A stretch of DNA of 60,457 nucleotides, counting the filler, from Sphacelaria rigidula (Eukaryota), in NCBI GenBank assembly GCA_964200075.2. It is 10 parts of 10 records of this genome, joined end to end, with 100 filler letters (N's around TTAATTAATTAA, not from the genome) between each part and the next. Parts side by side here need not be neighbours in the genome. Positions count along the whole stretch, not along the records: positions 42,393 to 48,347 come from CAXNAA020023235.1; 9 more parts are not named here. One strand, given 5' to 3'. The notes below the pieces were generated by a model. The model was not told where the DNA came from. It saw only the letters and a list, made by a program, of their open reading frames with translations, and ran no database searches. Of the stretch, positions 12,144 to 60,350 are shown in pieces. How positions within the stretch are numbered: the first letter of the stretch is position 1; each line of letters opens with the position of its first letter. The translations under genes were made by a program, and so were the position numbers.

Positions 12144-12212
<69 letters not shown>

Positions 12213-12878: not shown

Positions 12879-13160
12879 GGACCAAGACGAGAAGTTGAAG
12901 AGGAAGAGCACGTGAAGATATACGAGGGGTTGAGGGAGGGGGTAGGGATGAAAACATGTGTGCATGGCGCATTCAACTCTGCGAACAAGTTGAAACTTTG
13001 ATATCGGGTGGGGGACTTGGACCTGCCATAAAGAGGAGAGAGGTATACCAGTAGTCGGGTCTGGAGGAGGAAGGAGATGCACATGAATGACTTTGCCCCT
13101 GTGGCGACGCAGTCGAGTAGAACTCATATTGTGGAAGAAAATGAACCATAGCCAGTTGTA

Positions 13161-13531
13161 CCGGTGGCTCCGTTGGTAACCTCGAGTCCTTCTGACCGTT
13201 GGGCGGTGGATTTGAATCCCGGTGCAGTCACATGATCTGGGTTTTTTTCTCCCACGTCGCCCAACAGTGTGGGGAGCGACCATGTCGTGAGCGAGAGTAC
13301 GCAGAATTCGACTCCACGGTCGACGAGGGAAAGAGACTGCTGAGCCCCTCTCGCGATAGAAAACAAGGAAAGCACCGCAGCAGGTAGACGGAATATTGAA
13401 GCAAAAATAAGAAGAAACAAATTCTGTGTTTGCCTTCCTCTTATGTGACCCCGGCGGATGCGCCCAAATATGACGAAATCTGTACGCTGGCGTCCAGAGT
13501 AGATGGGGTGACAGTACAATACACACGCACG
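13161..13531 (+). mobile_element. tRNA-derived SINE-like element, family C
   Basis: A-box TGGCTCCGTTGG, B-box-like GATTTGAATCC, conserved body and CA-rich tail. Confidence 0.8.
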
Positions 13532-13763
13532 TGGGAGGAACGGGACGTGTTGGAGGGGAAAATGTGCGAGGTAGACAAGGGTGGCATCGAATGGTCTGGT
13601 AAAATAGATGAGAGAAAAATCTCGCTGTTGTAGGATAAAGACGTTGACCGCAGACGGCAACACAGGAATGGGGTATCCAATGTCGAAAAGCCGTCGTGTA
13701 ACGTATAGGAGAAACGTGAATAGTGCCGGGACGTTTAAAGTATCTTTCGTAGGAGTGGGAACG

Positions 13764-13863
13764 GTGCTCGGTCTCGAAAGGGATTCGTGGTCAATGGTCG
13801 AACGACTAAGGCGAGCAACAAATGAGTGCCCCCCTCCCCTCCCCTCCGCCCCCCTCCCTCTCC
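13764..13863 (+). mobile_element. Short poly(C)-tailed repeat, family B
   Basis: GTGCTCGGTCTCGAAAGGGATTCGTGGTCAATGGTCGAACGACTAAGGCGAGCAACAAATGAGTG followed by a C-rich tail. Confidence 0.75.
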
Positions 13864-15309
13864 AAGTTTGAAAAACATGGGTTGGCTTGCGGGTTAGGGT
13901 GCAGCCCCGAGCTCTGACTGTTAAGGTAAGGTCAAGGATCTGAAGTGCAGGCTGCTGGTGAAGAGTCAGGTTGGAGTGCTGAAAATAGTGAGGATATTGC
14001 TTTTATCATCATGTTGAAAGACGTTGTACCATGTGTAGTCGCAGTTTTTACCATGAACATAGAGTGTTTCCTTTTTATTGCTGTGTCTGTGTCGTCCTTT
14101 ATATCCCACGTGCTATGGGAGATATTGCCCCCAAATATACAACTCCCATGCACTCACTCCATCGCGTCTTGCATCCACACACTAGGCCATGTGAAGCGTA
14201 AGAGGGTCACAAACATCATCGACATTTTGCTCTTCTCCAGCGGGTGTACAGGCTCTGAGTTAGGAGTCCCCATCATTCCTGTATGCGAATACTCCCGTAT
14301 AGCATTATGATATGTGTACTCACAGCCCTCCCCCCCCGTCCCCTGCCGCCGCCGCGCCCCCGTCCATCTGTTATTTCGTGCTTTTGTTTTTGCCCCGCAC
14401 CTTGAATCCTTTTTCATCTGCTTGGAACCGTCCTCTGAATGCTGTCGCCCTGCTGGATACGGTTGGGTTGGTCCAACCGTTCGGCACCGTTTTGTCTGCG
14501 TGTACGTGTGTGTGACTGACTCCTTGGCTTTGGTCCGCACCGCTGCTGCCCCTCACAGTCTAGGAGGATATGATTTTGGCACGGGTGTCTAGAACGATTG
14601 GTTTAATTTTCAATTTTTCTCCTGTATTCATTCTATCTTCATTTCTTTATTTTTATCGTCCTGTTTTCCCCACGCGTTTAGTTGAGGTACCCTTGGGACG
14701 TTTTGGATATTTTGGAAAGATGAGCGGCATTAATTTCGGGGAACTTTTATATTTTCATGTATGAATCGCTTCGGGCGGGCTCGCGATGTCGAAATGTCGC
14801 TCTCGCAGGACGAAGAGCAATCGAGGAGGAGGTTGAAAAACCCCTTTGGTCCTATTTCCGTCACGATGAATGTAACGTGTCTGTGTTTTACGTTCGATGG
14901 AGGACGAGGAGCGCGGGGAAAATAGCATGAATCCCGCCTCTTTCCGTGTGGCGCACGTGGTTGAGTGTGGATATGTTCAGCCTCTACTGTACCCGATAGT
15001 AGAGTCTTGGAATTGACAAGTCGTGCTGTGGTACTGTGATTTCAGGATGTTGTATGTTTTCTATTTTTCCAGAGGCGCTCGTTGTAACAAGATGAATTAT
15101 GACGAGCTTTGTGTAGCTTCTGCAAAGCTGTCTAGCGACATCACGAAGTGTGACGTCATGTCTTTTGTTTTATTCTATCTTCTTCGGCGCCATTTTTCCC
15201 CTTCACATCAGACACTGAAAAAGAAAACCGGAGCCCTCCCCTTTTTTGTCGCCATCGTTCATCATATTTTCACTAGTCCGTTTCTTGATGCAACCGGGAA
15301 GGGGCCGAG

Positions 15310-16228
15310 ATTTGTGTTGCTGTGTATTCGATGTGTTCGTTATCTATCCGTACTTTCCCTATGAAGATTCGAACCTGGAAACTGGTGGAACAATTGCGTG
15401 TTTATGCCCGCCGCTTTTCCCAGCGGTGTTGATGTGTGCAGTAGTATGTGTGCCGTTCGTGATGGGTGGTCGTTGAGGCGGAGCTATCGGTTTAGTTCCT
15501 TCCTTATGGTTTGGCACGCACGTTGTGACAAGTGTGCGAAAGTTTGCGATAAACTACGACCACCACACCTCTCGTAGGAATGCTGAAATTGTGGTGTAAT
15601 GTCCTTGGCTGTGCTTCGGCTCCGTCGGAGTGATATGCTACGCTTCGGACGAATAGTGAAGGAAGCGGGAATGAATTAATCACGAGTTTGAGTGGTCACA
15701 GTGGTGTATGCAACCCCTGATGATGAGAGAGAAGTAGGACCCTTGCGGAGTCATGAAAATGTTGGGGGACCACTGTTTGTCTTGCTATGTATTCAGTGTG
15801 TTTGTTGTCCATCTGTACTTTCCCCGCGACGATTTGGTCCTGAAAACTGATGGAATAATTGCGTGTGTATGCTCGCTGCTTTCGTCAGCAGAATTGATGT
15901 TTTGCAGTAGTATGTGTGTCGTTGTGATGGGTGCTCGTTGAGTTGGAGCTATTGGTTTAGTTCCTCACTTATGTTTTAGCTCGCGCGTTGTGAGGAGTGT
16001 GTGAAGAGTTGCGAAAGGCTACAATTGTAGGATGCTGAAATCGTGGCGTGCTGTGCTGTGCTGTGCTTTAATATGCTGTACTGTACTGTGCTGTGGCCCC
16101 GTCGGAGTAATGAGCGACGTTTTTGACGAATAGTAAAAGGAAATGGGGATGAATGATCACGGGTTTGTGTGATCACGGTGTAGCCCACCCCTGATGATGA
16201 CAGAAGCAGGACTCTTGCGGAGTCATGA
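15310..16228 (+). repeat. Diverged tandem duplication, 2 x ~450-470 bp
   Basis: Units at ~15310-15756 and ~15775-16228 share colinear blocks such as CAGTAGTATGTGTG and CTTGCGGAGTCATGA. Confidence 0.85.
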
Positions 16229-17019
16229 CAAGGAAAGAGTTTCACATTCGGGTCCAGGTATTCCTCCTTGAGGGGTCCCCAGAGTTGGGAACTACACAAA
16301 AATATAGCTTGGGACATTTTCGTTTTATAATACATCGAAATATTCCTAGCCTATCGTATTATTGCCTGTCGTGACGCGGTCTCACATATTTCAGACGTTG
16401 GTTTTGGGATGAGGTGAAGGTCTCCTGACAGTTCACCCCGAGAAATGCACCCCCCAAACCCCTCCTGGCGTCTCTCCTGTGTGTGTCCACGACAAATTGT
16501 CCGTTCGTGGATTGATTGATTGATTGATTGATTGAATAAATTGTTTTGTTCGTGGAGGAAAGATGGTAACATAACACCAGCTCCGAAGTACTCTCCTTTA
16601 TGTGGAACTTCTCCTCTTTCCTGAGGACGCGAGTTTAGTGAGGGGTTCGCCGAAATTTTTCAAGGGTCGGACAAATAATTCGTCTGAAAATTACTTCGTT
16701 ATAGTATGATAAGTCGACTCATGTCGAATCAATCCCCAGGCTTTATTTCAGCGTTGCATCCAGGTACACGCACCCCAGACACGTGGAATGGCCCAAAAGC
16801 TGCGTGGATACCCCTCGGACCAGCGATTAACTTTTTCCTCCCTTTTGGGCAAAGAGGTCCAAGGAATCGTGAATTTGGTGATTTTGAGTAATGATGATTT
16901 GTCCTAACCGTGAAATCTTTTGCCTACCGAACGGTATAATATATTCAGTACGTCGCCGACGACGACTGATGCCGCGGTAGCGCTCCGGAGAAAAGTGGCT
17001 GGTTCGAGGAGGCAATTTT

Positions 17020-17231
17020 TGCACGTGAATGATGAATAAAGGAAGCCGATAACACCGAGCAGCTGGGAACTCCTACGCTTGGGATCGTTATCTCTAATGT
17101 TGCCGGTATGAGGCGCTTCATGCAGTCCGAAACCAGGTGTCATGCGCTGTATGACCACTTTCTTCGTGCTGGGACCACTTTCTTCATGCTGGCTTCGGGG
17201 CTGGTTTGTAGTGGGACTATCGCGGTATATC
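17020..17231 (+). repeat. Diverged relative of the 12623/57196 MITE
   Basis: Shares CACGTGAAT, CGAGCAGCTGGG and TATGAGGCGCTTYATGCAG, and ends in a degenerate right TIR. Confidence 0.55.
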
Positions 17232-18168
17232 ACTCAGCCATTTTGTTCCCCCCATTATTGCCGCCACCTTTTGCGATGAAGAGATGTCTTTCGAAAGTAC
17301 CGATAGTCATGTAAGTATATCTCCGGATATTTGTGCTGGATGAAGGAGAGTACTTCGGAGAACTCTGTTGGTCCTCTGGGTATTGAGCGGAATATGCGGT
17401 CAGGAAAAACGACTTTTCGTGTTGTCGCTTATGGTTGTCTCTTGACCTTGCTGTCAAGAGCAGGGCCAGCCTTTGAGCGGATCTGTAGGTGAAGGATCCA
17501 TTCCCGCTCGAACTGTGAAAGTTGGACTTTGAAAATTGGCATCGAGGATTGCCAGGGCATATTGAAACAAAAGATTTCGGGACTATGAAATATTTTTCTC
17601 ATTGACTGAGGGCGACAACAAAAAAAGCCGCTTCCATTACAGTATAATGACCTCAAGTCATGAAAAAATGACGATATTTCAAGGGTCTGTGAAAAGAAAT
17701 GTTTCGGACACGGAGCCCCACCCCCACCCCCTCCCGGAGGCAATTTATCGGGATATTTTTGTGATATTTTTGTGATTTCTTTGTTTTTGTCGACGTTGAA
17801 ACAACTTTAGCAACACTGACAAGAACTGAAGAGTCTGGCGGGCTTTGCGAGGTTCGTATGTTTGCTTTTGGTCCTTGCCCGCTCTGTCCCGATGGACTCG
17901 GATGCCGGCAACGCCTACACACATCTACGTACGAAACACGAGCGCACGGTAGCGACAGCCTGTAGTCAAAGTAGCGAGATAATCTCACACCTATTTTCCC
18001 GGACTACTAGTAACAGTAGTTTCGTGAGATTGAGAGTCTACGATACGATTGAGAGTAGGCTTTTCATTNNNNNNNNNNNNNNNNNNNNNNNNNNNNNNNN
18101 NNNNNNNNNNNNTTAATTAATTAANNNNNNNNNNNNNNNNNNNNNNNNNNNNNNNNNNNNNNNNNNNN

Positions 18169-20243
18169 GGAATCTCAAAGCGCCCACACAGGATGAAGTT
18201 ACTGAACTTTCAAGGAAAGGTATGCTACATACGGATGATGATGGTATAGTTCTGTTAGTTCGCCGGCCCACAGCAGCCCTCCCCAGGGGAAAGCCTACAA
18301 GTCAACATGCCCGCTTGCTAGGTGATGAACCCGTCCGCATCTATGTCCCGATGCTACTGCGCCCATGGGTTCTACACGAATGCCATTCACAGGCATCAAC
18401 TCATTTAGGCGCCATTAGGACCTCCCCGATTTCGGAACGTTTTTATTGGTGGGTTTGTATGGATCAGTGTTGTCGATGGTGGGTGAGGCGCTGTCTCTTG
18501 TGTCAAGCGCGAAAAACTTCTCGTCAAACAGTTCGTTGGCCGATTGTTTCCATGCCACTCCCAAACGGACCTAGTGAAGTAGTGTCGTGGGACTATTTTG
18601 GTCCTTTGCCCCTGACGGATAGTGGGAATAAGTATATTTTGTTGTTTACGGATAGATTTAGTCGACATGCGGTGATGCACGCCGTCCCACCCAGTAGTTG
18701 TACCGCGGAAGGTACCGCCAACATTCTTGTCTACATGCACATCCCACTGTGGGGTGTGCCCAACGCTTATTATCTGACAACGGCCCGAATGTTTTAGGCA
18801 AACTTTCTGCCGCTGTCAGTGACCTTTTGGGTGCCCACCGCATTTTTACTAGTTCATATCACCCTTCCACCAATGGTGGAACAGAACGAGTGAACCATAT
18901 GATGACGCAGATGCTTGCTGCTGTAGCGAATGAGAGACAGATGGACTGGGATCTGCACCTGCCCCTTGTCCAGATAAACTACAACAATTCAGTCAATGCC
19001 ACTATGGGATTGTCGCCGAATGAAATTCATATTGGACGCATGCCTCGGTTACCTTTAACGGTATTCGAACGCAAAAATAGAGGTGGACATCAGAGTCTAG
19101 ATCGTGACGTTGCAGAGTATCATTTGTCGGTTAGCAATCGTCTCCGTCTTGCATATGAAGTGGTACGAGAACAGAACCAAATCAATTTGGCCAAGGTGGC
19201 CAGGGCGAACTCGATGTTGGATGATGTGGTGCATAACCGCCCGGTGTGGAAGGTAGGCCAATGGGCATGGGTGTATAACGATGTGAAGACCATCAATCAA
19301 GGGGCTAGCTCAAAATCATCATCTTTGGATAAAGTGTTGAAGGCGAAACTGTCCTTGAATTGGACTGGTCCTTGGGAAATTTTAGATGTTGGTCCGAGCG
19401 CTACCGCACCCGACAAGAGTCCGGTGGGAGCGAAACTTTTGTATTTAGATTTTCCCACGGATGAACCTGGTTTGAAACCGAAAAATCGCGTCTCGATGCT
19501 ACGATGCAAACCGTGCATCCCCCCTCATGACTCTTCTGACATGCCCAAACAACTGCCGGTAGGGCTTAGCCAGTATGTGTTGATCAAGTATGCGATCAAA
19601 ACTCCGCCGTATCATATAACGGTCGAGGATGCGGACGCACCCCTGGAACGCGTTGAGGTAAAAAGGATTTCGGGCCATCAACTGGTTCGTGGTCGTGGAG
19701 GTAAGATAGCGGTAATGTATTACACACATTGGAAGGGTATCATGCGTGTTACATGGGAGCGTGAGCTTGATTTGCGTCACTCTATTCGGGAAATATTCCT
19801 GTACTGGGTAGGAGATACCGTCCAACACCGCCCGCTGAATAGGAGATATCGGTCGATGCGCACGGGAGCTGCCGCTCGAGAACTGGCACGTGAACACTCA
19901 GCGCGGTTTGTTGTGACAGGATATAGCCTTCTTTCGCTTTCACAATACATGCAGTGTCCACGGGAAACGATTGCCGAAAGGGTCGTATTTTTGGTATAAG
20001 GCTTTGGATTCACTGTGGTGGTTGGGAAAAATTCATTTGATCGACCCTGCAACTGACCACTCCTACTTTATCCGTTTCCTTGATGACCCGAGCCCCCTTA
20101 AGATTCGCTTGGATGATTCGTACTACACCGAGGAGCCGACCGCTCGGAGGGGATCCTGGTGCCTCCAACGACACGACCTAGGCGAACTCGAAACAGCCGT
20201 TCTACGGAACATGGACACCGCTTGGGATGCAGATGACTCATGA
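18169..20243 (+). pseudogene. Ty3/gypsy LTR-retrotransposon pol 3' part: integrase, chromodomain-like and Tudor/PWWP-like segment; two frameshifts
   Basis: HHCC zinc motif (LHECH..HLG...CLLCQ), D-D-E core (SWDYFGPLP, LLSDNG, YHPSTNGGTERVN), GPY/F-like WTGPWEI and chromo-like ISGHQ...YYTHWKG...TWE. Frameshifts near 18760 and 19975. Confidence 0.92.
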
Positions 20244-30280: not shown

Positions 30281-30485
<205 letters not shown>

Positions 30486-31869: not shown

Positions 31870-32182
31870 GAGGGGCAGCGGCGGGACTAGCAAAATGGAG
31901 AAGCAGGCTACCGGTTTCACACATACGACACCGGTGGCCATCGTTCGACCGCGTGCCGTATCATCGCTAACAGTCACCGCCAGCCCCGGCGGGATCGCCC
32001 CTGCGATGTCTACCGGATTCTCGCGGCACAACTTTTCTCGCACACTTGCGAGGGTCCGCGGTGATACCGAAAAACAGATCGTGTTGTCGGGCGGTGGGGG
32101 ACGACACTTGCTGGTGCTCGAGGTGAACGCGGGGAAGTTGACGCCGGGGATGGAGCTGAAGCAACGGGACGAGTGGTTCAAG
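31870..32182 (+). CDS. Next exon of the PH-domain protein
   Basis: TTCCCTCAG acceptor, phase-compatible with 30816. Encodes ...KQIVLSGGGGRHLLVLEV...QRDEWFK (start of the PH C-terminal helix); GT donor at 32183. Confidence 0.7.
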
Positions 32183-32216
32183 GTATTATGTACATGCCTG
32201 TTACTATTTGGCAACG

Positions 32217-32279
<63 letters not shown>

Positions 32280-32318
32280 CGTTGTTGTGGTTGTTGAGGC
32301 GGTTGTTGTTGTGGTGCG

Positions 32319-32381
<63 letters not shown>

Positions 32382-32460
32382 CGTCGTCGTCGTCGTCGTC
32401 GTCGTTGTTGTCGTCGTTGTTGTCCTCGTCGTTGTTGTCGACGTCATTGTTGTTTGTTGT
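32217..32460. repeat. Intronic (GTT)n/(GTC)n microsatellite
   Basis: Read directly; lies between the predicted donor at 32183 and acceptor at 32963. Confidence 0.9.
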
Positions 32461-32963
32461 TAGTTTCGTTTCGGGACGGGCAGTCGGCAGTGTAAGGACT
32501 AGGATAATATGAAGTAGGCATGCCAATGTGGACTTTTGGTTTTCTGTCAGGCTTGACGAGGATCATTTGGCCACATTGCAACCAGCTCCAGGTCTCTCTC
32601 ACCGATATGATGACTGTGACTAGAGGCGCGCAAAAACGATATATCACTCCACCTGATACTTCTCTGTTACTCTGCAGCGCGAATATCACATGTCTAGTTC
32701 GTTGTTGCTTTGAAGCGGCAAATATGTTTCCGTGACACCTTCGTCACGAACCACAGATCTACACTGTCGCGCACGATAGCGATGAGTTGGGTTCTGCTGA
32801 AACAAAGCAAAGAAATCCGATCGACGCGCTTCAACGGAATGCTGAATATTTTTCAGAGCCCACGATCTACCCAATGTTAACCCACTATCGATCCATTGTT
32901 AACAACAACACCAAAACAAACGTATCCTCCCTCCCCCCTTCAAAACATGGTCGTTTGCCGAAG

Positions 32964-34559
32964 GCCTTCAAATTCGCCGTTGACCAAGCCAACAAGGAGG
33001 TCATATCGAGGATGGCCTCAGCAGCGCAAAACTTGATAAGCACATCACGATCGACTCTGAGAGCAGTGCCGCTTGTCCCAAGGGGCTCAATAAGCGTCCC
33101 GCCATCAGAGTCCTTCCTGAGCTCGTCAGCACGGCAGCCTGCGACAGCTGACTTTAGATCATCGCCAGCGCTCCAAGAGACTTCTCGCTATCCTTCTTCC
33201 AGTGAAGGCGATCAAAGCGAAAGTGAGGAACGCGACGAGGGCAAGCGAACAGCACCCGCAGCGTTTGCACCCCCCCCTCCTATCGACACTACAGCTGCTG
33301 CATACGAAAGTGCTCCCTTCGGGCCAGCGAGCCCTCCGGCGCGGAATGGTGGCGGTCAGCCCGATAGAAAATCTCGCGCTCGTAGTCAGACGCCAGCCGA
33401 AGCAGCCTCGCAGACGGTCGCTCGACTTTCGGCGACCGCCAGAGCCTTGAGCAGTCGAGCGATTGGACTCTTGACCCCGTCGTCGTCGGGACCACAGGGC
33501 CGAGAACGGACAACATTAGCCACGTTGCTTCCTGACACTTGTCTCGATGATGAGCGAAGGCGAAGCCACGACGTTCCATCAAACTCCCGCCCGAGCTCTG
33601 CTGGCAACACGTTCGACCATGTTCCGTCGCCGACGGCGGCGGGGGTCGAAATCGGGAGCCCGTTGGCGCGTGGTGGCACCTCGAAGATCTTATCACGAAA
33701 GCCGTGCGCCGCAACGAACCACTCAGATAATCGGCCTGCTTACGACCATGGTAGACAGCTGAACACCTTGACTTATTGCGATGGGGCCGAGAAGGGAAAC
33801 TCTATGGAAAATGATGTCACGATCGCTTTTACTGGGGCTGCCACCGCCTCAAGACGTACTAGTAACAGCCGAATCAAACGATCGGACGGTGGCGCCCAGC
33901 CGGCACCTCGCGGCGCCCAGACGCCGTCACCATGGGCTACACCACCTGGATCGCCGGAAGCGCCAGCAGGGATCGATGATGATGTGTCGTCATCTCCAGC
34001 TCGAGGTCTGGTAAGGGCTAATGTCCGACAACGGTCGGCGTCTGCCTTCAACAATAACAACTCCGCCGCTACGGCCAGCGTGGGGAGTGGGGGTACAGCA
34101 GCAGCGCGTAGGGCTAGCATCTCCGCCCGGCTTCAAATAATGAAGTCGATGACAGGGTCCCCAGGCGCAAAGGGCGAGGGTTCGCAAAAACCTTTGCCAC
34201 CCCCAGAAATTCAAGAGCAACAGCGACGGATCTCGCTTCATCAACAGCAGCAGCGGCGGCAGAGTTCTTCCTCCGCTGGCCGCAGATCATCAGTCCAGCA
34301 GCTGGCTGCATGGGTGGCTAGCGGGGTGGGCGTCAACGATGCTTCGTCGGCTGTTGGTGGTTCGTTGGGGTCCCCGGGAGCCAGGGATGTTGGAAGGGAT
34401 TGGTCTCCTTCCGCAATCGCTCATACCGGTGGTGTCGGCGGGGCTAACCGCAGCCGTGGGGGCGGCGTCGGCGCCCTGTCTCCACTACGCCCCGTCGAAT
34501 ATACGGCGATGCAAGAGATTGGGTCTCCTCGAGCCCGTGGTGCTGTGACGATGGGCTAA
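32964..34559 (+). CDS. Terminal exon of the PH-domain protein; long S/P/A/R-rich disordered tail
   Basis: Phase-0 AG acceptor gives RDEWFK|AFKFAVDQ, completing the helix. Open, GC-rich frame of ~530 codons to TAA. Confidence 0.75.
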   Translation, partial: AFKFAVDQANKEVISRMASAAQNLISTSRSTLRAVPLVPRGSISVPPSESFLSSSARQPATADFRSSPALQETSRYPSSSEGDQSESEERDEGKRTAPAAFAPPPPIDTTAAAYESAPFGPASPPARNGGGQPDRKSRARSQTPAEAASQTVARLSATARALSSRAIGLLTPSSSGPQGRERTTLATLLPDTCLDDERRRSHDVPSNSRPSSAGNTFDHVPSPTAAGVEIGSPLARGGTSKILSRKPCAATNHSDNRPAYDHGRQLNTLTYCDGAEKGNSMENDVTIAFTGAATASRRTSNSRIKRSDGGAQPAPRGAQTPSPWATPPGSPEAPAGIDDDVSSSPARGLVRANVRQRSASAFNNNNSAATASVGSGGTAAARRASISARLQIMKSMTGSPGAKGEGSQKPLPPPEIQEQQRRISLHQQQQRRQSSSSAGRRSSVQQLAAWVASGVGVNDASSAVGGSLGSPGARDVGRDWSPSAIAHTGGVGGANRSRGGGVGALSPLRPVEYTAMQEIGSPRARGAVTMG

Positions 34560-39978: not shown

Positions 39979-42900
39979 GTGATCCACACTGGCCAATTGC
40001 ATCTGCATGTCCATTACACCATCCATGTTTAGCTTTGTCTACAGTATGTTTGTATTGTTGTCTATGTGGAGCGGTCCATCAAATCGTGTCGAGTGTCCAA
40101 CTGAGAGCGGTTTTCGGATATGTATCTCATTGAAATATGTCATTATCAGGTATGGAGAACTCGGATCTTGTATCTTTTTTGCGCCTGAAATATTTACCCA
40201 CCAGAAACAGATGTGCGTGCTGTTGTGTCAGTCTTTTTACATCTAAGAGAGAGAAATTACTGATTAATAATGGAAGAACACATTTATTGAAAAATAAAAA
40301 GGGAAACATTACATTACATCAATCGTGCTGGTTTATTTTCCGCCTGTCCGATCTTCTACATGTGAATCATTCGACTACGGATCTGATTAGAATTAAAAAT
40401 GGCAACTATGGTGAAAGAAGAACTATCACAGAGGGCGATGAAAAGCAAAAGATTGAACGGAACGAGCATAAACGAGTGCGTCATGGAGGCCGTGGAAGTG
40501 CCGGAGGTATGCGCCGATGTAGCCATAGTGACATATTCCCTGTATGCTACATTTCCCATACCCTTACCCGGCTGATATACTATGCTGCACTCTAGTGTAG
40601 TCTACAGTTGTCTCACTATGCACTACACGGACAGTGGTGTTCGTTGCAGTTGCCGTGACATTTTCAAAGTCAGCACAGCACTTACATTACATCAATCACT
40701 ACTTCAGTCAGCACAGCATCATTGAACTATCCTGTACCACCGTGTATAACTGACATATCTCACCCTTGGGCAGGGACTACCTGTGCCAATTGTAAACAAT
40801 CACCCGTTGAAGGTCGAGCAATCTAAATGTTATTCTCGTCCCGAGTGGTCCAACATGCGGTAGTCAGTACAGGCGAGGACAACAGTGGAGTACGTGATAT
40901 ACAGACGACACAGCTGGCGGTGGTACAAACAACAGTAGGAGAGTCTACTCATTACAGTATAGGTCGCTGGCGACGCTGAGCGCACCCCGAATTTGATCGA
41001 AGATGCATTTTTTGTGCGTTCACCCGTCTGTTTTTCCGGTGCCTGTTGGACCTGTGCCTCTGCGTACGTGTGCGTCTTGTTGTAATCGTTGTCCGGAGAC
41101 CTACCATAGGTTGAATCATGAGCGCTATTCATTCAAGTATCAGGTCAAATCCCCCCCAAAATAGTCATTTTGGTGGTATTATAGATAAAATGCCTCGGGT
41201 GCTCCCTAAACAATTGACATACAATACAGTCGGTACTACCGATGCAAGTTGAGGATCCGAAGTCCAGCCGTGCTTGAGCCGTGTGATTTTTTTTACTTTG
41301 GGGATATATTGTGCACCTCTTGGCTTGAGTCCGATCTAGTTCGTCGCTCATCTTCCTGTTTGCGATTGCCTCGGAGTTGTCTATGTACTATCCTTGCCGT
41401 GTATGCCCAACCTTTACTCTGGCAGAACTGACTTTTGTGGTCTGCCCACACCTTGCCGTTGCATTTACAGCACGTGTTCACTGTCATACACCTAACCAGG
41501 TCGTATCTGACAGTTTGGTACTTCGTTGTACAGTAGAAAGGAGCCAATTACTGTACTTTTTGATCCCTTACAGTCAGTATGAGGTATCTCAAACTCGAGG
41601 TTCTCGCTGCAAAGGTATTCAACAATAATTTACTATTGAATAGATGGGGAACCTCGAGTTTGAGGTACCCCTGATGCGAGCTGGGCCGGCCATCAGTGAT
41701 TTTTGAACGTGAAGTGGAGATGCGATTGGCAATTGGAAGAGTTGGGCGCTGAAATTTTGACACAACATTTCTATCATCAATCCGCGCAACCCTGTACAGT
41801 AAGTGGAGTCCAGGAAGAAAAAAAACAGGAAGTTAATCCTTTGGGGACTGAAGCTCACGAACACCACGTTCACGACGTCTTAGTAAAATAATAATAAACA
41901 AGTCTGGGAGAGACCTGTCCAATCGGGGCGAGGCGAAATTTATCGACTACATCAAAACGACCAGTGGAGGGGAGGCTGTTGCCGGGAGTGATGTCACTGC
42001 AAAGTTGATGTACCCTGTCCCTGGCCCACAGAAAAGCCTTCGAAGCAAAGGAAAGCCTACATTCTCGGGGGCAAGATTCCCGATTTTTTCAGCTTTTACT
42101 TGCATTTTATCTACGGCCCGACCTCCCATCCCCCGATTTTTTTGGGTCACCATCCTGAAGTAAATCCTAGTTGATAGCACTAACATGTCATGCCCGAGGG
42201 AAATGCGGGAATAAATGTACCCCACTATATATGTGATCATGTTCACAAGGCGACTGAATCTGGCAACGCTGTGGGACGAGAGACGGAGCTAGNNNNNNNN
42301 NNNNNNNNNNNNNNNNNNNNNNNNNNNNNNNNNNNNTTAATTAATTAANNNNNNNNNNNNNNNNNNNNNNNNNNNNNNNNNNNNNNNNNNNNTTCACCAC
42401 CCCGATTTTTTTTTCTCTTGTATGGGATTTCGGAACCCACTCCCCCCCCCCCACCCCCACCCCCAAAAAAAACTCCAGGATTCGAAAAAAGGGCATAGGG
42501 TCTCGGGATTGTTTTTGGGCACTCTCGGGTGCACCCCCTAAGGACAAGGCTACGGTCGGCTGATGATCATGAACATGCATGAGAGGCGTTTTGTGCGGGA
42601 AGATAACCCGCTTAGCCCAGTACATGACGTTGCTCTTCGTTGGGTTGCCATTACTCCGCTGGCGTCGTGTGTGCGAAGTGTTGGTGCATATATGATACCG
42701 CTTTTTGTCATGAAGGTTCACCAATTTGTAGGTGTTTTTCATTTTCGTCCGGTTTAGAACCACTGAGTAGTATGTTGGGAGGGACACGTGAACGACAGCA
42801 GCAGTGGTCGAAGCCCAGTTTCGGGACGCGCGTTCGCTGTTTGCACTCTACGCTTGGGCTGAACGTTGCACACATATTCTGGTGTTCAACTTAGCAATTC

Positions 42901-44865
42901 GAAAATATGCATGGAAGCGTGACACACTCGTCTCATGCTCGAAGTTGAAGTACCCTTAACCCTGCTGTCCACGTGTGGGGAAGAAGCAAAAAAGTGTACG
43001 TACCCACCAAGTCCTTCAAGAATCGTACTATGAGTAGCATCCGCTAACTCGAGTATCCCTGTTGTCGCAGATGGTGGACATGTGTGGGTAATTGTTTGAT
43101 GAAGCTACAACGCCGCCCCCGAAAAGACCCCGGCCACCCTGTTGCAGTACACAGACGTTATCAGCGCTGTCTGCTGAAGAGAGTGAACGGAAAGAAAAAC
43201 TAGGGCTGGTCAAAGATTCCGGCGGAATCAAAACCTGGGCAAGTCACTAAGTTTGCCAACAGCGAGCAAGAACTCGAGACATGGAAGTCTAAAGCTCCGC
43301 GTTTCGTTTTCTATTGCACGGCTTTCTCTATAACAAGCAAAGGTTATATTTGGTTGGTTAGATTGATTGTGGCACATTTAGGGATCCCCAAGGGATGTAG
43401 TCGTCACAACATGGCTGTACACAAGGTTAACAAATCGGAACATTTTCTGAAGGAACCTCCAAGTGGGAAATATATGTCGAACAGACAGTACACTGAAATA
43501 AAAACGAAAGGAAAAAAATAATCGGTCCCGATGAACGTTGATCATAAAGGAAGCAAGAAATGACCGGCCCATGAAGCGTTGCTTCACGTGCATCGGGGCG
43601 TGCGCGAAACGCACAACGATATAGGCTGGGCCGGCCAGAAAGAAACGTTTTATTCTAGATGGTGACATGGTATCAACAACCCCGAGTTGAGGCAAGCTGG
43701 GCATATTGTTGTAATAGACGGATCAAAGCGGTCGCGTTTACATTTGGAGACTGTAGTGTCAAATTCGACCAAACTTTCTGAGCGTGCACCTTCTGATGCG
43801 ACAAAAAGCGGTAAAGGTGTTACTCCGTTGGTCATGGACCTTCGAACGACTCACCGTCGGAATGATATCAAATTCTCATGTCCGTTGGTTCGCATGCGGA
43901 TCGGCTCCAAAGGAGTATCTGCAAGTATCGCCACGGGGCGCCAACCTGTTCGAGCTAGTACCTGTACTTTTGACATGTGATCGACAAGGTCATTTCCGAC
44001 GACACATTGTCTCGAAACCCTGAGTTTGGCTTCGTTGAGATGCGACGAATCATCATGATGACGAATTCGAGTGATCGGTCGTTTTTCGACGGATCGAAGC
44101 AACTCAAGGTTTCAAGCCAAGAATCGGAAAGTAAGTTGTCTATGACGTTTCGAATATTGAGGTTCCAAGTCGAGAGGGTTGACTCCGCGTGACGATGTCG
44201 GCGAATACCCATATCTTTTTACATGAAACAAGAGCAATAGCCCGTTGAAGCAGACTGCGGCTCCGCTATCTTAGAGTCATACTATTTGGGCATGAGGCCT
44301 CACCCACGAGCCCCACGGAAGCGGAGCACAAACACTGCTGGAGTGCAACATGAAAATATATAAAAAACGTAGAACTGGGCGTACGAAAGATTGAAGAATT
44401 GTGCTGAACTATTTTCGGAGAGTGCAGCAAGTCTTTCCGAGGCGCATGTGGATACCATCTTATGTACTTGTTTCATCATCCTCACTAGGCTCCCTTGGAG
44501 GAACTGTTCGATATTGAAATATGTTGGGGCGGGCGCAAGGATTTGAGTCCCGGCAGACACCTTTCTTTGTTAAAATGTGTATGGTTTGTGCCGTTGAAAA
44601 CATGACGCGAGTAGCAAAAACAAGTTTGCCGTTGAGAATCGATGCGATGCGAGAATGGTGATGGTCATAATCCCATCCGCGATACCAAAGTGTCAGGTAT
44701 ACACCAGGTAGACAGCATTGCTGATATTATGATACAATAGCGTAATGAAGGGGCATACCTGACCCGCGTGCAAGAGCTGATCGTTGCTGTCATGATGTCT
44801 GTTGTTGAGTGATGAGCGGTGCGTTTGCCTTGGTCCCTTTTGCATGATCTCCTCCCTTCGCTCAG

Positions 44866-44937
44866 GCGCCATCCCCTCTGAGCTCGGTCGTCTAGGTCGT
44901 CTTCAACGGCTGGACCTGAGCTATAACAAACTCTCAG
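44866..44937 (+). CDS. Single 72-nt leucine-rich-repeat exon, (G)AIPSELGRLGRLQRLDLSYNKLS(G)
   Basis: Matches the 24-aa GxIPxxLxxLxxLxxLxLxxNxLx LRR consensus. Pyrimidine tract plus CAG acceptor; symmetric phase 1; donor CAG|GCGAGT (GC type). Confidence 0.88.
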
Positions 44938-47650
44938 GCGAGTAGAGTTCCAGAGAGTGATGCGTGCAGGAAAGGATTGATTCGTTTCTCCTCATTCGTG
45001 GTGTTATGAGCTACTCAAGTCTCCGACATGAAGAACGATTTTTGCTCTTCAATTCTGTCGACACTACACTACTCGGAGACGACAGTCGTTGTGTAACATG
45101 TGCGTCGATCCACCTTATCTGTCGAGTGCGTTACTTCTGGTGGATCACGTCCAAGCGAGTCGTCCCTGTTGCATGCACGTGTCTCATCTGACCACAGCGA
45201 GATGCCTCCGTGGCATGGGCTTTTTGGCGTTCACGAATCAGACCAGATATCGCGATCATGATATATGTTGCGGGTCCCTACATGACCCCACGTGACGTTC
45301 ATTTGACGACCAGTGATTTTTTTTTAGTGAAGCTGTGGCAGCATTTAGTTGAGTGCTAGGCTACTGCAAGTGAATTGCAATAACGAGTGTACTCGGAGAC
45401 TTGCATACCTGTATTGAGCAGAACCCATATCTTTGCACGGCGAGGATAGTCAGGGTGATACACTATCGATCTCACTCGATATCTACTGTAGTCCTGTGTA
45501 GTTCACCAAAAGCGCATGCTACCATACTCGGAACGTAACTGAGATATAACGAGGAAAATAGACCGTGCTTGATGTCCGGCGTGGTTATCTCCATTTGTTG
45601 ATGAACCTACCGCCCTTAGCAGCGTCGAGCGTGTGTCGCAATAAGCTGTGCATGTCGGATTGTTGGCGATATTGGGCCGCGTCTGATGTAATTGCTTTTT
45701 TGTCATTGTGTCGTATCGTTCAATATCCTAGTCCGGGGGAGCATGCTGAGTACGAGTAACTTTCGTTTTTGTGGCTCCTTGTTGGTAGCAAAACGGCAAG
45801 CTGTGGCGCTTTATTTGATACGAGGTCTGCATGAAGGTAGATGTGGAAGGTGGAGAAGTGCATGTGTCTCTGAAGAAGCTCGGTTTTTCACTGCAGACTT
45901 TCTGTCCTCGTCAGTGCAGATGAATCAAACCGAGCACCGTTTTGGCGTTGTCGCTATAATAGCTATGCTGTGGCTTCATGTTTTATAACCGTGTTGGACG
46001 AGAACACTGGGGACGGACAAAAACATGTACACAGGACAGGACAATGTAATTTTACCGTTATTCCCAAATAAGTAGCGATGCTAAAAGCTGGAAACAGGCT
46101 AGTTCATCCGTTTTCTCTGCCCGATAACAATGATACTTCACATGATTTCCACTTGCAGAGCACACCTTCACATGGCCGTCTTCCTAACGGTTGGTTCCGG
46201 GAGGACAAAAGAAAAATGCAGCACTTCACCTAAGGTTTGGTTTATTTTGTTTCCGTGTGCGTGGCACCAGTATATATACAACACTTGCCTCGAAAGTGTG
46301 TAACGATCCCGTCATGTAGGAAAGCGTGCCGATCACGAAGGAGAGTCCTGTGCACGAGGAATAAAAAGGTATGTTTGTCGCGTACATGCTTCGTGTTCTA
46401 CGGTGGCATGCCTTCACACGTTCGATATTTTTTTGTGGTTCACTTGGTGTCTACCGATCACACATATATATATATATATTTGCGGCCACGAGATGGTGGA
46501 GTTGTGCGATTCCGAAAATGAGCAGACTCGGGTATTGGCGTTGGAAGGTTTAAAAGGAAGTACGGGCCGCGTTTTCTTCATCTGCGACTGTCACCCAATA
46601 CTTTGTTGGTTACATATTTCTTACGATCCCACGTGGCTACTTTTTGTCAGACAGTTTGTGTACGAGCTAGGTCGGCCTCAAAACTGAAATTCCTTCCACC
46701 AGACATATCTCAAAAACCGCGGCATGTCAAAAAGTGAACGTATCCCTTTGATCGGTTGATGGCCACGCGTGTGCTTGGACAGCTCTTAGTATACTTGATG
46801 GTGTTGATCCAAGGGAAAAAGCGGTGTCCCAAAATATCCTGTTATGTGTATGAATGGAGGACGGTTTTGGGTACTCTTGTTGTGGTATGTTGTGCCAATA
46901 TTTCAATGCGGTTATCTCGGCAGTGGAGCGGAGGATTGGGCTGCGGTTTGTTGCGTGCGCTTTCCACGCACCCAATCTAGGTTGCGTCGTTCCGCGACTG
47001 CCTTCGTGCGTGATACTAAGCCGCACCGAACTAAAATGTACACGAAAAGTTGTTTTTTAGTTTGTGGGGCTTTTCGGATCCGCTGTAGCGAATTGAGCGA
47101 AGAGGTAACGGCTTGGCCTACGTGGCTGTTGTGTTTGCGGGGGGTTGTGCAGTGCCGCGGGCCGGCTTGCTTCCTGTATCGAGAAACTCGCGATAAAACG
47201 TGCTATAGCTGTCGCATACTAAAGCAAGTTGATCAGGGATGAAGCGTGTGTTCTTCTCGTGTTCTGCTTGGCAGAGGTGCGAGCACCTGATAACGTATTC
47301 ATTATTTCTCCGTGTTTTGGTTGATTATTTCCGGAGAAGGTTTGTTGAGTCTTGAGGGGCCCCCTTCACACCCACACCTGTCTCGAGTGCAGGGCAAAAC
47401 GGTGGTCTGATGGTCAGATTGGTACCGTCAGGGTGCCGAGGACAAGGGTTCGGTTTCGGTCAGACACGTTTTCTCCCTTCGAAATACATGATTTCCATCA
47501 GCGTATTAAGGTTGAGTACATGAGGAGACATGGGTTGTTCCCTTGAGACCACTAGACCGTGGACTCGTCGCGAGGGTGGCGGGAGATTTAGGGTGTGAAG
47601 GAAAGGAAAGTCATGTGTCAATCGAGAGTGGAAAACACAAAAGGTCTTGT

Positions 47651-48283
47651 GCCGTAATATACCAAGTTGAGTACAGCACGTGGCTAAACATTCGCCACGA
47701 GAAATATGCTCGCGATTCCGCCGCGTATGATCGCTATGATAGGCGATGAAATATTTTGGACGCCTGGCAAGCGTGAGGTTACCCGCTGGGTCTGCGGTAT
47801 CCACATGCGCGAGTCCCACACCCCTACCATGTGCCATGTACTTCTGTACTACACGTAGCATTCGCTTGGCTGCTGACACTCTCTTCGGACCAAAATCAAT
47901 GTTGGAACGTCATCGTCACATCAAAGCTGTCGTGGTACGTGGAAAAAACGCCCGTACTGTCCTCCGCGGGGTACCACTTTTGTTCGCAGCTCACCAAAGT
48001 TTTTTGCGCCGGGTTCGGCACCAGAAAGGTCCCGATATAGTACTGTTCGGAAAAAAGGCGTGGCAGCCAGGGAGGGTTAAGTGTGGTACAGAAAGTACAA
48101 GGCACCTGGTACGAGTGTGGGACTCGCGCTGCGGATACCGCCGACCCAGCGGGTAATCTAACGCTGCACATACGTCCAAAATATTTCATGGTGCCATCGT
48201 AGCTAACATACGGGGCAGAATCGTCGCCAGTCCATCCCTGCCAAATATTCGAGCACGTTCTGTACTTCATGTACAGTAACGGC
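47651..48283. mobile_element. Foldback/MITE-like imperfect palindrome (~630 bp)
   Basis: ~47668-47860 is the reverse complement of ~48075-48270 (for example ATGAAATATTTTGGACG and TTACCCGCTGGGTC). Confidence 0.75.
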
Positions 48284-48889
48284 CCGCTAGTAAGAAACTA
48301 AAAAATCGGCCTGAGGCTGGGTTTCTCATTTTCCTGGGAGCATGAGCNNNNNNNNNNNNNNNNNNNNNNNNNNNNNNNNNNNNNNNNNNNNTTAATTAAT
48401 TAANNNNNNNNNNNNNNNNNNNNNNNNNNNNNNNNNNNNNNNNNNNNATGATGAGGTTGTTGTTGCTGCTGTAGTTGGTGAGGGTGTTGCAGTTGAAGTT
48501 CACCTTGCTGCGATGATGGCTAGATCTAGTAGCTGGTGGCAGTTGCGGAGGATTGCGGGGGGTTGCGGGGAAATAGGATGCAGTGCGCGTAGCCTGCACC
48601 GCTGAAGTCGCTGCTATCTTCCAACACCCACCCGTCTTCTTCCGTTCCGTTCCACTGTTGTTCGTCGTGGCTGCTCTCTTCGTACCCCCCTTGGTCACCG
48701 TAAAGTTGCACGGTGTTGACCGATCCGTAGGAATGAGTCTAAGGGGGGGGCTGGTGTCCTCCGTGACGAGGTTGATTCTGGGTGGGATGCGCATGACGTA
48801 CCCCCGAATCGACTTGCGGCGTCACTACTCTACGCAATGGGCAAAAAGTATGCATGTGGCCCAGTTCGTCGCATGTGATGCATCGTTTA

Positions 48890-52106: not shown

Positions 52107-54402
52107 CTACATGATGTTCATGACAATATTACGGTAAAACTCAAAAAACTCTGTCGGCAACACTTTAGTGAGGAAATCTGCATGTTGATACTCCGATGTC
52201 ACGTGAATAACCGAAACCTCATTCCTCCCGACCTACTCCCTGATAAAATGATGCCATATGTCGATGTGCTTGGAGTTGGAGTTTGTGTTTGGGTTCTTCG
52301 CCAACTGAATAGCTCCCTGATTATCCTCAAACACCGGAATGCATGGCATTCCCATCTGTGGCAACATGAAACGCCAAACCTGTCTCAAAAACAATACCTC
52401 CTTCAGAATATCTGTCATCGCAACGTACTCTGCTTCCGTTGTGGACAGTGTCACACACTTTTGAGTCCTTGAAAAACCAAGACACACATCCACCTCCACA
52501 CAATACCAGCCCTCCTGATACCGACCGCCTATCAGCTGCCTTACTTGCGTAGTCTGCGTCTGCAAACACATGAAAGCTCAACCCCTGTATACTTCCTCTG
52601 CGAAAAGAAATCCCCCGCGAACTTGTTCACCTAACATACTCCAAAATCCCAAGTGCAGCACGCCAATGAAGGTGTTTTGGTGAGGCGCAGTACCTCGCTA
52701 CTGCACGGACTGCCTTAGATATGTCTAGCCTCGTTTGAGTTGCCAGCCACATCAGTGACTCTATCAATTCCCGAGACGGAAATTCCGTTGCCTGTTCTTC
52801 TACACTGAACTCTTCAAGCTTTGCACCAACAGCGATGGGGATACTCGTTCCCCACTCTACTCCGTATTCCTTCGCCAACTCTTCTGCGTGTGTTTGTTGT
52901 GAAATTTTCAGAGTCCCCCTTGCAATATCTCTCTCATAGTACAGTCCAGAATACCAACGCAAATCCCCGAGGTTTCTGACTGGAAACATCGTGTTGAAAT
53001 CTTTCCCAAACTCGTCACATCTGTCCTTCTCTCCCACTGCGAATATATCATCTACATGTACTACAATGGTGATAATCACCCTGCCATCCTCAATCAACCG
53101 AAATACACATGAATCCGCCAAGCACTGGTCAAATCCCAAGACAAATAAACATTCCGGCAGATGATTGTGCCACTGCCTATTTGCCTGTTTCAATCCGTAC
53201 AAACTTTTGTTGAGTCTTACTATTTTACCAGATGAGCTACCACAACCAAGTGGCAACCGCATGAAAACATCCTCGTCCAACTCAGACTGTACGAAAGTTT
53301 GTTCGATATCAAAATGGCGCACCGCAAGATTTTGCTCACAAGCCAGAGTCGCCGACAAACGTACGCTAGAAACTGCTACAGTGGGGGCATACAACTCTCC
53401 AAATTCTATGTTCTCCCTCTGCATATCTTCTCTTGCTACTAGTCTCGACTTCATCTTCGTGGGCCATCCAAACTCGTCCGCCTTCCAGCTATATACCCAC
53501 TTTGCATGGATGTAGTTGTCCACGAGTTGCTCTTCCGCCGAGTCTATCGTCCCCGCCATCAGAATTTCCCGCCATTCCCGCCCCATCGAGTCCCTCCATA
53601 AATCACCGTACTCCGAGTGCACCGCCTGCGTGTATCCGTTGGGGACCTTGAGATCCTTTGCTGGACAATGTGGGAGTTCCGGTGGGATGTGCGGCGGGCG
53701 CTGCTCACGCAAAGCGGTATATATATCTTCACGCGTCGCCAGCCTCGTCGCGAGTCACATCGGTATCCCCCCGGCCCCCCCTTTCTTAACATCGTTGCCC
53801 TGTCGCCCGGCATCAATCACGCCGCGCGTGAGGAGAGCAGACAGCAAAGATTGCTCATTTGACTGCTGCATGAGTCCCTAGCTGTGGTGCAAGAGTGCAG
53901 CCTTGTCTGTCTTGTATTGCGTCGACCCTGACCGCGTCCGCCCTGGCTGCCGTGGGTCTGCTTCCAGATCCAGCTCCTTTCCTCACGTTGATTGGAAGCG
54001 GCGAGAAAGAATGGTCCATCACTTCAGGGGCGGATGATGCATCGCGCGACGCAGTCGAGGAAGATGCTGACGGTATCGAGGACGGGATCGGGGCCGAAGG
54101 TCCGGAGAAGATCGGCAGGGATGTCGGCGGCGATCGGTGCATCGACGGAGTGGATGGGTCCGTCGGCGGCGGTAGTACCGGCTGAGTCGGTGGAGTCGGC
54201 GGGCGCGGCGGCGGCAGGATCGGCTGAGTCGGCGGAGTCTGCTGGCGCGGCGACGGCGGCGGCGGCGGCGGCTCGAACTCCAGTGTGTGATATGTCGGCG
54301 GGAGCAGCGGTGTGGCGACGGCGGCGGCGGTGCTGCCATGAACCTCCTCCCCCCCGACGAGCGGCGTTGGGACCTTCCGCCGCCGCCCCCGCGGGCGGAT
54401 CC
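52107..54402 (-). pseudogene. Ty1/copia pol: linker, reverse transcriptase (RVT_2) and RNase H; frameshifted
   Basis: KWVYSWK, KSRLVAR, LNKSLYGLKQA and VHVDDI; RNase H FADADYAS..DRRSVSG, STTEAEYVA, EDNQGAI, SKHIDI and QHADFLTK. Confidence 0.95.
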
Positions 54403-58039: not shown

Positions 58040-60350
58040 TCAGATTTTGTATATGTTGATCAGCTTGACGAGATGGCAGTGCCTGTGCCTGCTGAGGTAC
58101 TTGGTTCCTATGTCGGCGAGTTGGTCTTTAGTCTTAACGTATAACGAATGTCGATCCTTCCCTCCTTGACTGATTCCTGAATGAAGAAGTACCGTAGAGC
58201 TACGTGCTTGACTCTCGAGGTGTAGGCTCGGTTGCCTGTGACGTGGAGAGTTGAGGTGTTGTCGATGTAGACGGGGGCGGAGTCGAAGCGTGTGCCAAAT
58301 CCCATCTCCAGCATCATGTTCGAGCTAAATATGGCCCCCTTCATGGTGAGTGCAGCGGCCACGAGTTCTGCTTCCATGGTCGATTGCGCCGTCAATCCTT
58401 GTAGTCCTGGCTTAAAGCTGATGAGGCCATTCGAGCGAAAGAGAAGATATGATGCTGTTGATTTCTCGTTGTCGGGGTCGTTGCCCCAGTTCACCTATGA
58501 AAAATCCGTCACTTGGAAACCACCCTGGTTGTAGGTGATGTCATGGTCCGTAATGCCGGCCAAATATCGAAGCAAGTGTTGTGCAGCTGCCACATGCGCC
58601 TTCGACGGTTTGAATATCGCCCGCGTCAGTTGATTGACGCCGTATCCAATCTCGTAGCGGGTCACTCGAGCGAGATACATCACACTGCATGTGATGGCCT
58701 GGAAGCACTGTTTGTCCTCCTCGTTTAGTATTTTGTCCCTCGGCTGGTCCAGTGACAATTCTTGTCCCGCCCCAGGAGTGCACGCCGGGTTACAGTTCGC
58801 TATCTCGTATCGTTCCCGGAGAGACTTGTTGTAATTTGTGTGACTAGTGTTGATTACCTTGCTATTACGGTCACGAACAGCCGCCATTCCCAGCACTAAC
58901 GATTTATCTCCCATGGCCGTCATAAAAAAACGTCCCAATAGTTTATTTTTGTTTTTTTCCAGCACCTTGTAGCCAATCTGCCACCACTCCAGGTTGTACC
59001 CCCCGACTATTACCGATATCATGCGAATACGCTGAATCCAGCAGATCGGAATAAGTGCGGCAACCGAAACCGGAGACTTGTTTCCAGCCCAGCACGCCGA
59101 CACGAACCTTGTAACAACAGCAGCAGCAACAGCGGTAGCAGCAGTAGTAGTAGTAGTCGTAGTAGTTGTTGTTAATGATGATGATAATGATGGTGGAGAT
59201 AGTGGTGGTGATGACGTTGTTGTTGTTGTTGTTGTTGTTGCCTGTAGTTGCGGGCTGCCATGCGTCCACACGTCACCATGAAGTGAGTGTCGATGATTAC
59301 GGGGTAGCAATGGTTCTGCGAGCCGTGTCATCGTGTGTCCGCGAAAACCGTCCCGTGGGTGTGTCACGAGGTGCTCCGGCAGTGTACCACCCTGCGAAAG
59401 ACCATCGTGCGGAAGCGTCCCGCCACAGGTCGGGGCACCGTCGTGCATATCTCGCCTAGTGATGACGCTGATTCTCCCCAGAAGCTCGCCCCCTTGTGAA
59501 TTTCTAGCGCCCCCGCTGGCAGTCGCATGGTCGGCAAAGACATGAGCCAGATGAGTCAATACAGAAATGTGATTGCGAAGGTCGCGTATGAAGGCGTCGT
59601 TGGGGGCGTAGTTGCGACCCTTACTGCCGCCAGGCTCCTCGTCGTTGAGTAGTGAAGGTTGTACGATGTAGACGCGATAGCACTTACTGTTATTGCCATA
59701 CTCAACCAATCGTCCTCCGACTGGCTCGGGAGATAGTTTCTTTGTTCCTTTATTGGTGCGAACGAACGCCTTGGCCTCAATGACTCGAGGATGTCTCTGA
59801 TCTGGCTTTCTCCCCTGCAGCATCTTGTGCGGACATTGCATTCTTAGCGCGGAGTGCGGTGCCCCGTATGCAAGGTAGGATGTCCTGAGCATTGATTCCC
59901 CCCAGGGAAAGGTTGGTAAGCCGCTGTCGGCAAGTATGCACCGGACCATGGCTGCAAGCGTCCTCCCTACGCGTTCTGACAGGTCGATTCGTTGTGGTGT
60001 ATTGGTGCTCACAAACTCTAGCAATATGCCTGTCTGCCGGCAGTACGTTCTGAAATCGTTGCCAACAAACTCATCCCCTTTGTCTGCCCTGAGTCATTCG
60101 AGCCGAACGCCGCCGGTCCCACCCATGGTCATGACCAGTTGCAAGGTGCGTTATACTTTGTTGTAGGCTGTCTTCGGATAGTCTAGTTGATGGCTTTTCC
60201 CAACAGCACGAATATTCCAGTCTGGGATAGATCCACCGAAGTCCCCTCCGTTACTTTAGATGGTTTGGAGGAGGTTCAAACTATATTGCTGTTCATGTCC
60301 CCCATCCGCCTATGCCACAGCGTGGCGGCGTGTACAGCTTGCATGGCCAG
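58040..60350 (-). pseudogene. Ty1/copia pol relic: GAG-pre-integrase, integrase, RT C-terminus, RNase H; RT core missing
   Basis: LWHRRMGDMN, AVGKSHQL, RADKGDEF, NTPQ...SERVGRTL, HLLRYLAG, AQSTMEAELVA, YIDNTS and RVKHVALRYFFIQE. Confidence 0.92.

Follow-up and report, generated by a model that had tools for sequence, protein, structure and literature searches.

The question raised by this locus is whether a stretch of only 72 nucleotides, 44866-44937, on a short contig is a real coding exon and, if so, what kind of gene it serves. The earlier note, made from the sequence alone, had taken it for one LRR module of the brown-algal shuffling-exon type, hidden from the ORF track and equipped with a GC donor. 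The window, i.e., the whole stretch of DNA analysed here (60,457 nucleotides), is made up of ten pieces, each 5,955-5,956 bp long, with spacers of the form N44-TTAATTAATTAA-N44 between them. These spacers lie at 5957-6056 and at eight more places, every ~6,056 bases, and features cannot be linked across the joints. The stretch in question is on the eighth piece (42393-48347; 5,955 bp), for which the following features are used below; X8 and X9 are two of the public sequencing runs described with the splicing evidence.

42393 to 44840, plus strand: upstream intron sequence, extending with the acceptor region over 2,473 nt or more to the contig end, without coding match
44841 to 44865, plus strand: 3' end of the upstream intron, a pyrimidine-rich tract and AG acceptor, seen in the sequence and in RNA-type contigs, which diverge from the genomic sequence here
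44866 to 44937, plus strand: type I LRR exon of 72 nt for (G)AIPSELGRLGRLQRLDLSYNKLS, both flanking introns in phase 1
44938 to 44945, plus strand: GC donor of the downstream intron, CAG/GCGAGTAG, seen in the sequence; contigs of X8 and X9 continue past 44938
44946 to 48347, plus strand: downstream intron sequence to the contig end, at least 3,410 nt including the donor, with high-copy repeats and an inverted repeat, without coding match

The anatomy of the exon leaves a single reading. Two stop codons are present in each of frames 1 and 2, and the sole open frame is the third (nt 3-71), which reads AIPSELGRLGRLQRLDLSYNKLS; joined to the split codon G/GC, this peptide gives a 24-aa unit, G-AIPSELGRLGRLQRLDLSYNKLS. 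Since the first two bases of the exon finish the codon of the previous exon and its last base opens the next codon, the introns are in phase 1 on both sides. The acceptor reads ...ATGATCTCCTCCCTTCGCTC-AG/G, with pyrimidines at 16 of the 20 bases preceding the AG. The donor is CAG/GCGAGT, in which the GC at 44938-44939 takes intron positions +1 and +2. The general donor consensus is MAG/GTRAGT, and the donor here agrees with it at eight of nine places, the C at +2 being the sole misfit. Everything that had been claimed of the exon itself, i.e., its 72 nt, its phases, its one 24-aa LRR, its acceptor and its donor, was borne out on the sequence. In Pfam, the 23 residues of the exon matched LRR_8 (E 0.014) and LRR_1 (E 0.02), both under the curated cut-offs, as expected of a single repeat, and the 49-aa stop-to-stop ORF around the exon (44796-44942) matched LRR_1 at E 0.0039.

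The exon falls into a class already described from brown algae. The type I LRR exons of Ectocarpus each encode one repeat on a single 72-nt, 24-aa exon with the consensus GxxPxxLxxxxxLxxLxLxxNxLx (Zambounis et al. 2012, PMC3341825), and the same exon design was reported from four brown algae, with nt 3-71 encoding 23 residues and a core of LxxLxxLxxLxLxxNxL (Teng et al. 2024, PMC11378527). The peptide encoded here fits both expressions, and the length of 72 nt for 24 residues and the symmetric frame are likewise those of a brown-algal type I exon. The assignment to the shuffling-exon type thus holds for length, register and consensus, as far as these are laid out in the two papers. None of four peptide strings of the exon was found in the text of the supplement to Teng et al. 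(2024). Type II LRR exons, which occur in the LRR-kinases of Ectocarpus and have the register xLxxNxLxxxxxGxxxxxxxLxxL (PMC3341825), were also considered and rejected, the peptide misfitting that register at positions 2 (A), 5 (S), 7 and 13.

Geometry alone, i.e., an AG followed by 72 open nucleotides and a GY, is found at 37 places when both strands of the contig 42393-48347 are counted and therefore has no evidential value by itself. The repeat register is far more selective. When nine register positions were scored across the whole window in six frames, ten stretches scored eight or more, and the only one with nine of nine was 44866-44937, which was also the only one of the ten with AG..GY borders. 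In 100 shuffles, the mean number of stretches with nine of nine was 0.13, and the mean number scoring eight or more with AG..GY borders was 0.02, with a maximum of 1. The earlier statement that the 6-kb contig has no other LRR exon was confirmed by regular expression, register score, blastn-short and tblastn, and by these searches no second copy, relic or reverse-strand copy of the LRR was found in the whole window.

Evidence on splicing was taken from public runs, of which five are of DNA type (two studies; one labelled 'algae metagenome') and three small ones, X8, X9 and X10, come from one study with the same species label and are presumed, not certain, to be RNA. These three were retrieved by species label; the runs listed for a 3.2-kb stretch included none of RNA. 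The whole contig was compared with X8, X9, X10 and the best DNA run, X1; the material compared was assembled contigs and not reads, which give neither junction counts nor strand nor a measure of skipping. Two contigs, a 443-nt one of X10 (record 9) and a 175-nt one of X8 (record 17), agreed with positions 44865-44938 (74 nt) at every base. Loose ends, of which at most 30 letters each were visible (median lengths 10-255 nt), were found on both sides of the exon. Those before 44865 belong to two contigs each in X9, X8 and X10 and end in ...AACAAGCTGACG, in frame ...NKLT, and those behind 44938 belong to one contig each in X9 and X8 and start with TGATATCCCCGAAGAG..., in frame (G)DIPEELGQL. The upstream continuation ends in ...ACG and then G, the downstream one starts with G TGA TAT..., and the frame of the exon is kept throughout. 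In this frame the order in the transcript is ...NKLT-G/AIPSE...KLS-G/DIPEELGQL, that is, the end of one LRR, the LRR of the exon and the start of the next.

The positions of the two cuts follow from the bases shared at the joints. The G at 44865 also fits as the last base of the upstream exon, and the G at 44938 is common to the first base of the next exon, so that the only canonical cuts are AG/G at 44865/44866 and G/GC at 44937/44938. We conclude that contigs of X8, X9 and X10, all three probably RNA runs, make use of both borders, the GC donor included; contigs of an intronless DNA copy would look no different. The borders predicted at 44865/44866 and 44937/44938 are thus those found in X8-X10, given that the RNA type of these runs is presumed and that the contigs are assembled. 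Most intron bins had little or zero cover in the RNA-type runs, which was not counted as evidence. Because both borders continue into LRR coding sequence, the exon is part of a longer LRR transcript, as one of the two earlier readings had it, and the other one, an orphan spare exon, is unlikely. The last 18 bases of the upstream partner and the first 30 bases of the downstream partner are absent from the whole window, and no joints to other places on the contig were listed for the RNA-type runs. The partners being absent from the contig, the neighbouring exons must lie at distances exceeding 2,473 nt on the upstream side and 3,410 nt on the downstream side.

Related copies of the exon and variable partners are also seen in these runs. 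The upstream continuations differ, with a consensus agreement of 0.77 in X9 and 0.9 in X10 and with consensus letters differing between runs, and have their last 12 bases in common. The exon therefore has at least two distinct LRR partners on its upstream side, a diversity that may be due to alternative splicing, alleles or paralogues. One contig in each of X8, X9 and X10 is the same as the exon up to 44904 and then continues into a different LRR second half, from which it follows that a family of related LRR exons is expressed. The DNA run X1 covers 30 of 30 bins of the contig, with a summed depth at the exon bin of 473 versus ~60-79 for perfect single contigs, and 446 of its 777 aligned contigs are only 90-95% alike. 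This excess of depth, together with the diverged contigs, points to several diverged genomic copies of the exon region and fits a duplicating module.

Against this background, other explanations of the locus have to be weighed. That non-coding DNA has by chance produced an LRR-like open frame here might be argued from the abundance of AG-72nt-GY open frames on the contig and from the Pfam scores under the cut-offs. However, a perfect register match was expected far less than once per window, and still more rarely with splice dinucleotides, and contigs of three runs continue from the very borders of the exon into LRR coding sequence; on the latter ground this reading was rejected, and its probability is negligible. 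The existence of related genomic copies raises a subtler alternative, since perfectly matching transcripts could stem from an identical paralogous exon elsewhere, leaving the copy on this contig a silent duplicate, i.e., a relic or intron-borne LRR module whose splice sites are intact. Non-coding type I copies, with conserved splice sites, do sometimes lie inside introns of Ectocarpus according to Zambounis et al. (2012, PMC3341825), several copies of 90-95% similarity are present in X1, and the exon stands alone on its contig. However, the RNA-type contigs have no mismatch over 74 nt, as opposed to 90-95% identity for most of the other DNA copies, and the frame and both splice sites are intact. 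A silent duplicate is therefore quite improbable, and the transcripts probably derive from exactly the locus 44866-44937 and not from an identical paralogue.

The remaining alternative concerns the use of the exon and not its reality. It had been suggested that the weak GC donor could make inclusion optional, so that the exon would be a cassette whose inclusion is limited by that donor. Alternative splicing of type I LRR exons is reported, also for Ectocarpus ROCO genes (PMC11378527), and the two or more upstream continuations joined to the exon in RNA-type contigs might be read in the same way. However, the two partners concern the upstream exons and not skipping of this exon, and they may equally be alleles or paralogues. 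The donor moreover fits the consensus outside +2 and is used in contigs of X9 and X8, where the donor half of a GC-AG intron is present; the contig ends before the corresponding acceptor. For Ectocarpus, the published share of GT-AG introns is 95.3%, the remainder (4.7%) being GC-AG (PMC3787667), i.e., about one in 20, so that a GC donor is unremarkable. The suggestion is weakened by these points, and an optional cassette limited by its donor appears unlikely; inclusion could possibly be optional here in the same sense as for any type I exon. The reading preferred accordingly, and very probably correct, is that of a brown-algal type I LRR exon at 44866-44937 that is functional, transcribed and spliced to LRR exons off the contig.

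To which class of gene the exon belongs is a separate question, on which the earlier note had named an LRR-ROCO or LRR-kinase receptor. The part of this claim that stood is the LRR module of a longer transcript; the ROCO or kinase identity gained no support on the contig, where Roc, COR and kinase gave no match among 83 ORFs of at least 45 aa. One of these ORFs, that enclosing the exon, matches LRR_1, and nine others have weak, below-cut-off matches to unrelated families. Proteins were searched with the 49-aa ORF 44796-44942 as the query. The first search gave 12 matches among 35 candidates, and the six named ones (five plant RLP/RLK and one bacterial Ig-like protein) show 50-73% identity across the repeat; a Roc or COR domain was found in none of the 12 and a brown-algal origin in none of the six. 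The second search gave 31,456 proteins at E <=0.001, mainly long multi-LRR proteins among the matches listed, and in most of the best 150 of these 31,456 the best matched stretch starts at query residues 17-24, at or just before the part encoded by the exon. Fourteen proteins of at least 58% identity were picked by eye from the same 150; all 14 have LRR families, nine have bacterial-type or extracellular partner domains and none has a Roc, COR or kinase domain. No brown-algal protein with the repeat of the exon was among the protein-database matches listed for this query, and the metagenome contigs gave no match to the first 39 bases of the exon or to its codon-degenerate pattern. We conclude that the similarity of a single LRR cannot assign a gene class.

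The class can nevertheless be judged from published locus counts. A gene for an LRR-ROC-COR (ROCO) GTPase, from the family of candidate immune receptors, is suggested by the exact match of the exon to the ROCO exon consensus and by the fact that ROCO loci are the main carriers of type I exons in Ectocarpus (222 exons; 37 ROCO genes and 20 pseudogenes; PMC3341825), with nine ROCO genes carrying 62 such exons in Saccharina japonica (PMC11378527). However, type I exons are not specific to ROCO genes, as they also occur in five LRR-kinases and 46 of 164 other LRR loci of Ectocarpus (PMC3341825), and shuffling LRR exons occur in 15 non-ROCO loci of S. japonica (PMC11378527). Roc and COR are missing from both sets of proteins examined and from the ORFs of the contig, although the latter counts little, since the contig is too short and ends 3.4 kb past the exon. 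By the same counts, non-ROCO loci are as many as ROCO loci or more (in S. japonica 15 versus nine), and all visible loose-end sequence on both sides of the exon (up to 30 letters each) is LRR coding. Nothing speaks directly against an LRR-only protein or another non-ROCO type I locus, in a setting where a C-terminal domain would be beyond the reach of the short RNA-type contigs. On these counts, the chances that the exon belongs to an LRR-only or other non-ROCO locus are about even, those of a ROCO gene somewhat below even, and those of a type I LRR-kinase small at best. The product would presumably be a ligand-binding, receptor-like LRR protein.

The exon is unusually isolated for its family. 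Mean intron lengths are given as 703 bp for Ectocarpus and 1,057 bp for S. japonica (PMC4421812), and both introns flanking the exon are more than twice the mean of either species, while the published ROCO arrays, as far as they are figured, are drawn as dense runs of 72-nt exons. The exon may belong to an array: its two transcript neighbours are both LRR coding, and the 5,955-bp contig has no second LRR exon.

Within the downstream intron, high-copy repeats occupy 46970-47566 and 48164-48347, with summed depths in X1 of 5,207-18,720 and 21,155, respectively, compared with ~60-79 for single contigs. The segment 47368-47566 also reaches a depth of 836-2,040 in the three RNA-type runs and may be an expressed short interspersed element. 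In the same intron, an inverted repeat (47713-47873 and 48063-48223) has arms of ~163 nt with 81% identity and a spacer of ~190 nt; the ORFs on its two arms are alike (MKYFGR...VRLPAGSAVS), and the whole resembles what is left of a hairpin-forming or foldback transposon. Scans of the contig for Rfam families (E <=1), tRNAs and tandem repeats gave no match. The repeats and the inverted repeat are probably the reason why the assembly ended in a short contig and why the exon would be missed by gene models.

Other pieces of the window were surveyed as well. A copia-type reverse-transcriptase ORF of 375 aa lies at 52627-53754 (-) on a sister contig. Among its 29 best database rows, 27 are from Ectocarpus sp. 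CCAP 1310/34 (31-71% identity, proteins with PF07727 and PF00665); the later rows include one from Ectocarpus at 42%, and all others are at or below 34%. If the ten contigs share an assembly, this homology and the 'algae metagenome' label of one DNA run indicate a brown-algal host, probably one other than Ectocarpus. Two further long ORFs, at 18117-19999 (+) and 58495-60093 (-), resemble, by eye, pieces of retrotransposon integrase or polyprotein. Long trinucleotide runs at 30281-30450 and 32150-32520 translate, according to frame, into poly-Q, poly-L, poly-N or poly-V, and a 607-aa low-complexity ORF lies at 32736-34559 on their contig, whose GC content (52.5%) is the highest of the ten.

The function of such an exon can be proposed as follows. 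The symmetric 72-nt module would add one 24-residue plant-type LRR (GxIPxxLGxLxxLxxLxLxxNxLS) to a multi-exon array. Splicing would proceed via the canonical AG acceptor at 44865/44866 and the GC-AG type donor at 44937/44938 to further LRR-coding exons, which would lie beyond an intron of at least 2.47 kb upstream and at least 3.41 kb downstream. As the repeat exons are self-contained and frame-neutral, the reading frame survives when a copy is duplicated, lost or skipped, and the exon would thereby follow the exon-shuffling and alternative-splicing design published for brown-algal LRR proteins. A more far-reaching reading, which must be considered speculative and rather improbable, is that several near-identical LRR cassettes are dispersed in repeat-rich DNA with introns of multiple kb between them, and that the transcriptome has more than one upstream partner exon. 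If this were true, a brown alga other than Ectocarpus would build variable LRR arrays by combinatorial splicing of modules that are dispersed and not tightly arrayed, and the GC donor would be one tuning point.

Based on the preferred reading, a single 72-nt coding module that ORF-based annotation had missed was found from the raw sequence, and public presumed-RNA contigs confirm it to the base. The type I LRR repertoire that it joins has been proposed to comprise candidate immune receptors that arise through shuffling and alternative splicing of exons. The value lies in annotation, as the short unplaced contigs of brown-algal assemblies contain real receptor exons; no new principle is involved.

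In comparison with known systems, the exon shares with the type I exons of Ectocarpus its 72 nt and 24 aa, its consensus, its frame-neutral symmetry, the coding of one LRR per exon and a brown-algal host (PMC3341825). It differs in that the Ectocarpus exons stand in dense arrays, whereas this one is alone on a 6-kb contig between introns of at least 2.47 and at least 3.41 kb; the host is also another species, with transposon proteins at most about 70% identical to those of Ectocarpus, and the exon is known here without a linked ROC-COR on the contig. The type II exons described in the same paper are also of 72 nt and 24 aa, but their register is offset from that of the exon. With the ROCO exons of S. 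japonica (e.g., SJ02233) and the 15 non-ROCO loci of that species it shares the 72 bp, the coding span of nt 3-71 and the core LxxLxxLxxLxLxxNxL (PMC11378527). The 'phase 2' of Teng et al. (2024) is taken here to count the bases that precede the first complete codon, which corresponds to intron phase 1 of the present exon. The S. japonica exons are reported to be alternatively spliced, whereas two upstream partners, and not full isoforms, were seen here; a GC donor is present in this exon and is not mentioned in the relevant parts of PMC11378527. The LRRs of plant RLK, RLP and PGIP proteins have the same 24-residue motif as the exon, LxxLxxLxLxxNxLSGxIPxxLG. Plant LRR domains are as a rule encoded by a single long exon or a few of them, not by one exon per repeat. 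The design, register and alternative splicing of such exons are already published (2012, 2024), and the exon at 44866-44937 extends the set of expressed type I LRR modules by one, from a brown-algal host outside Ectocarpus.
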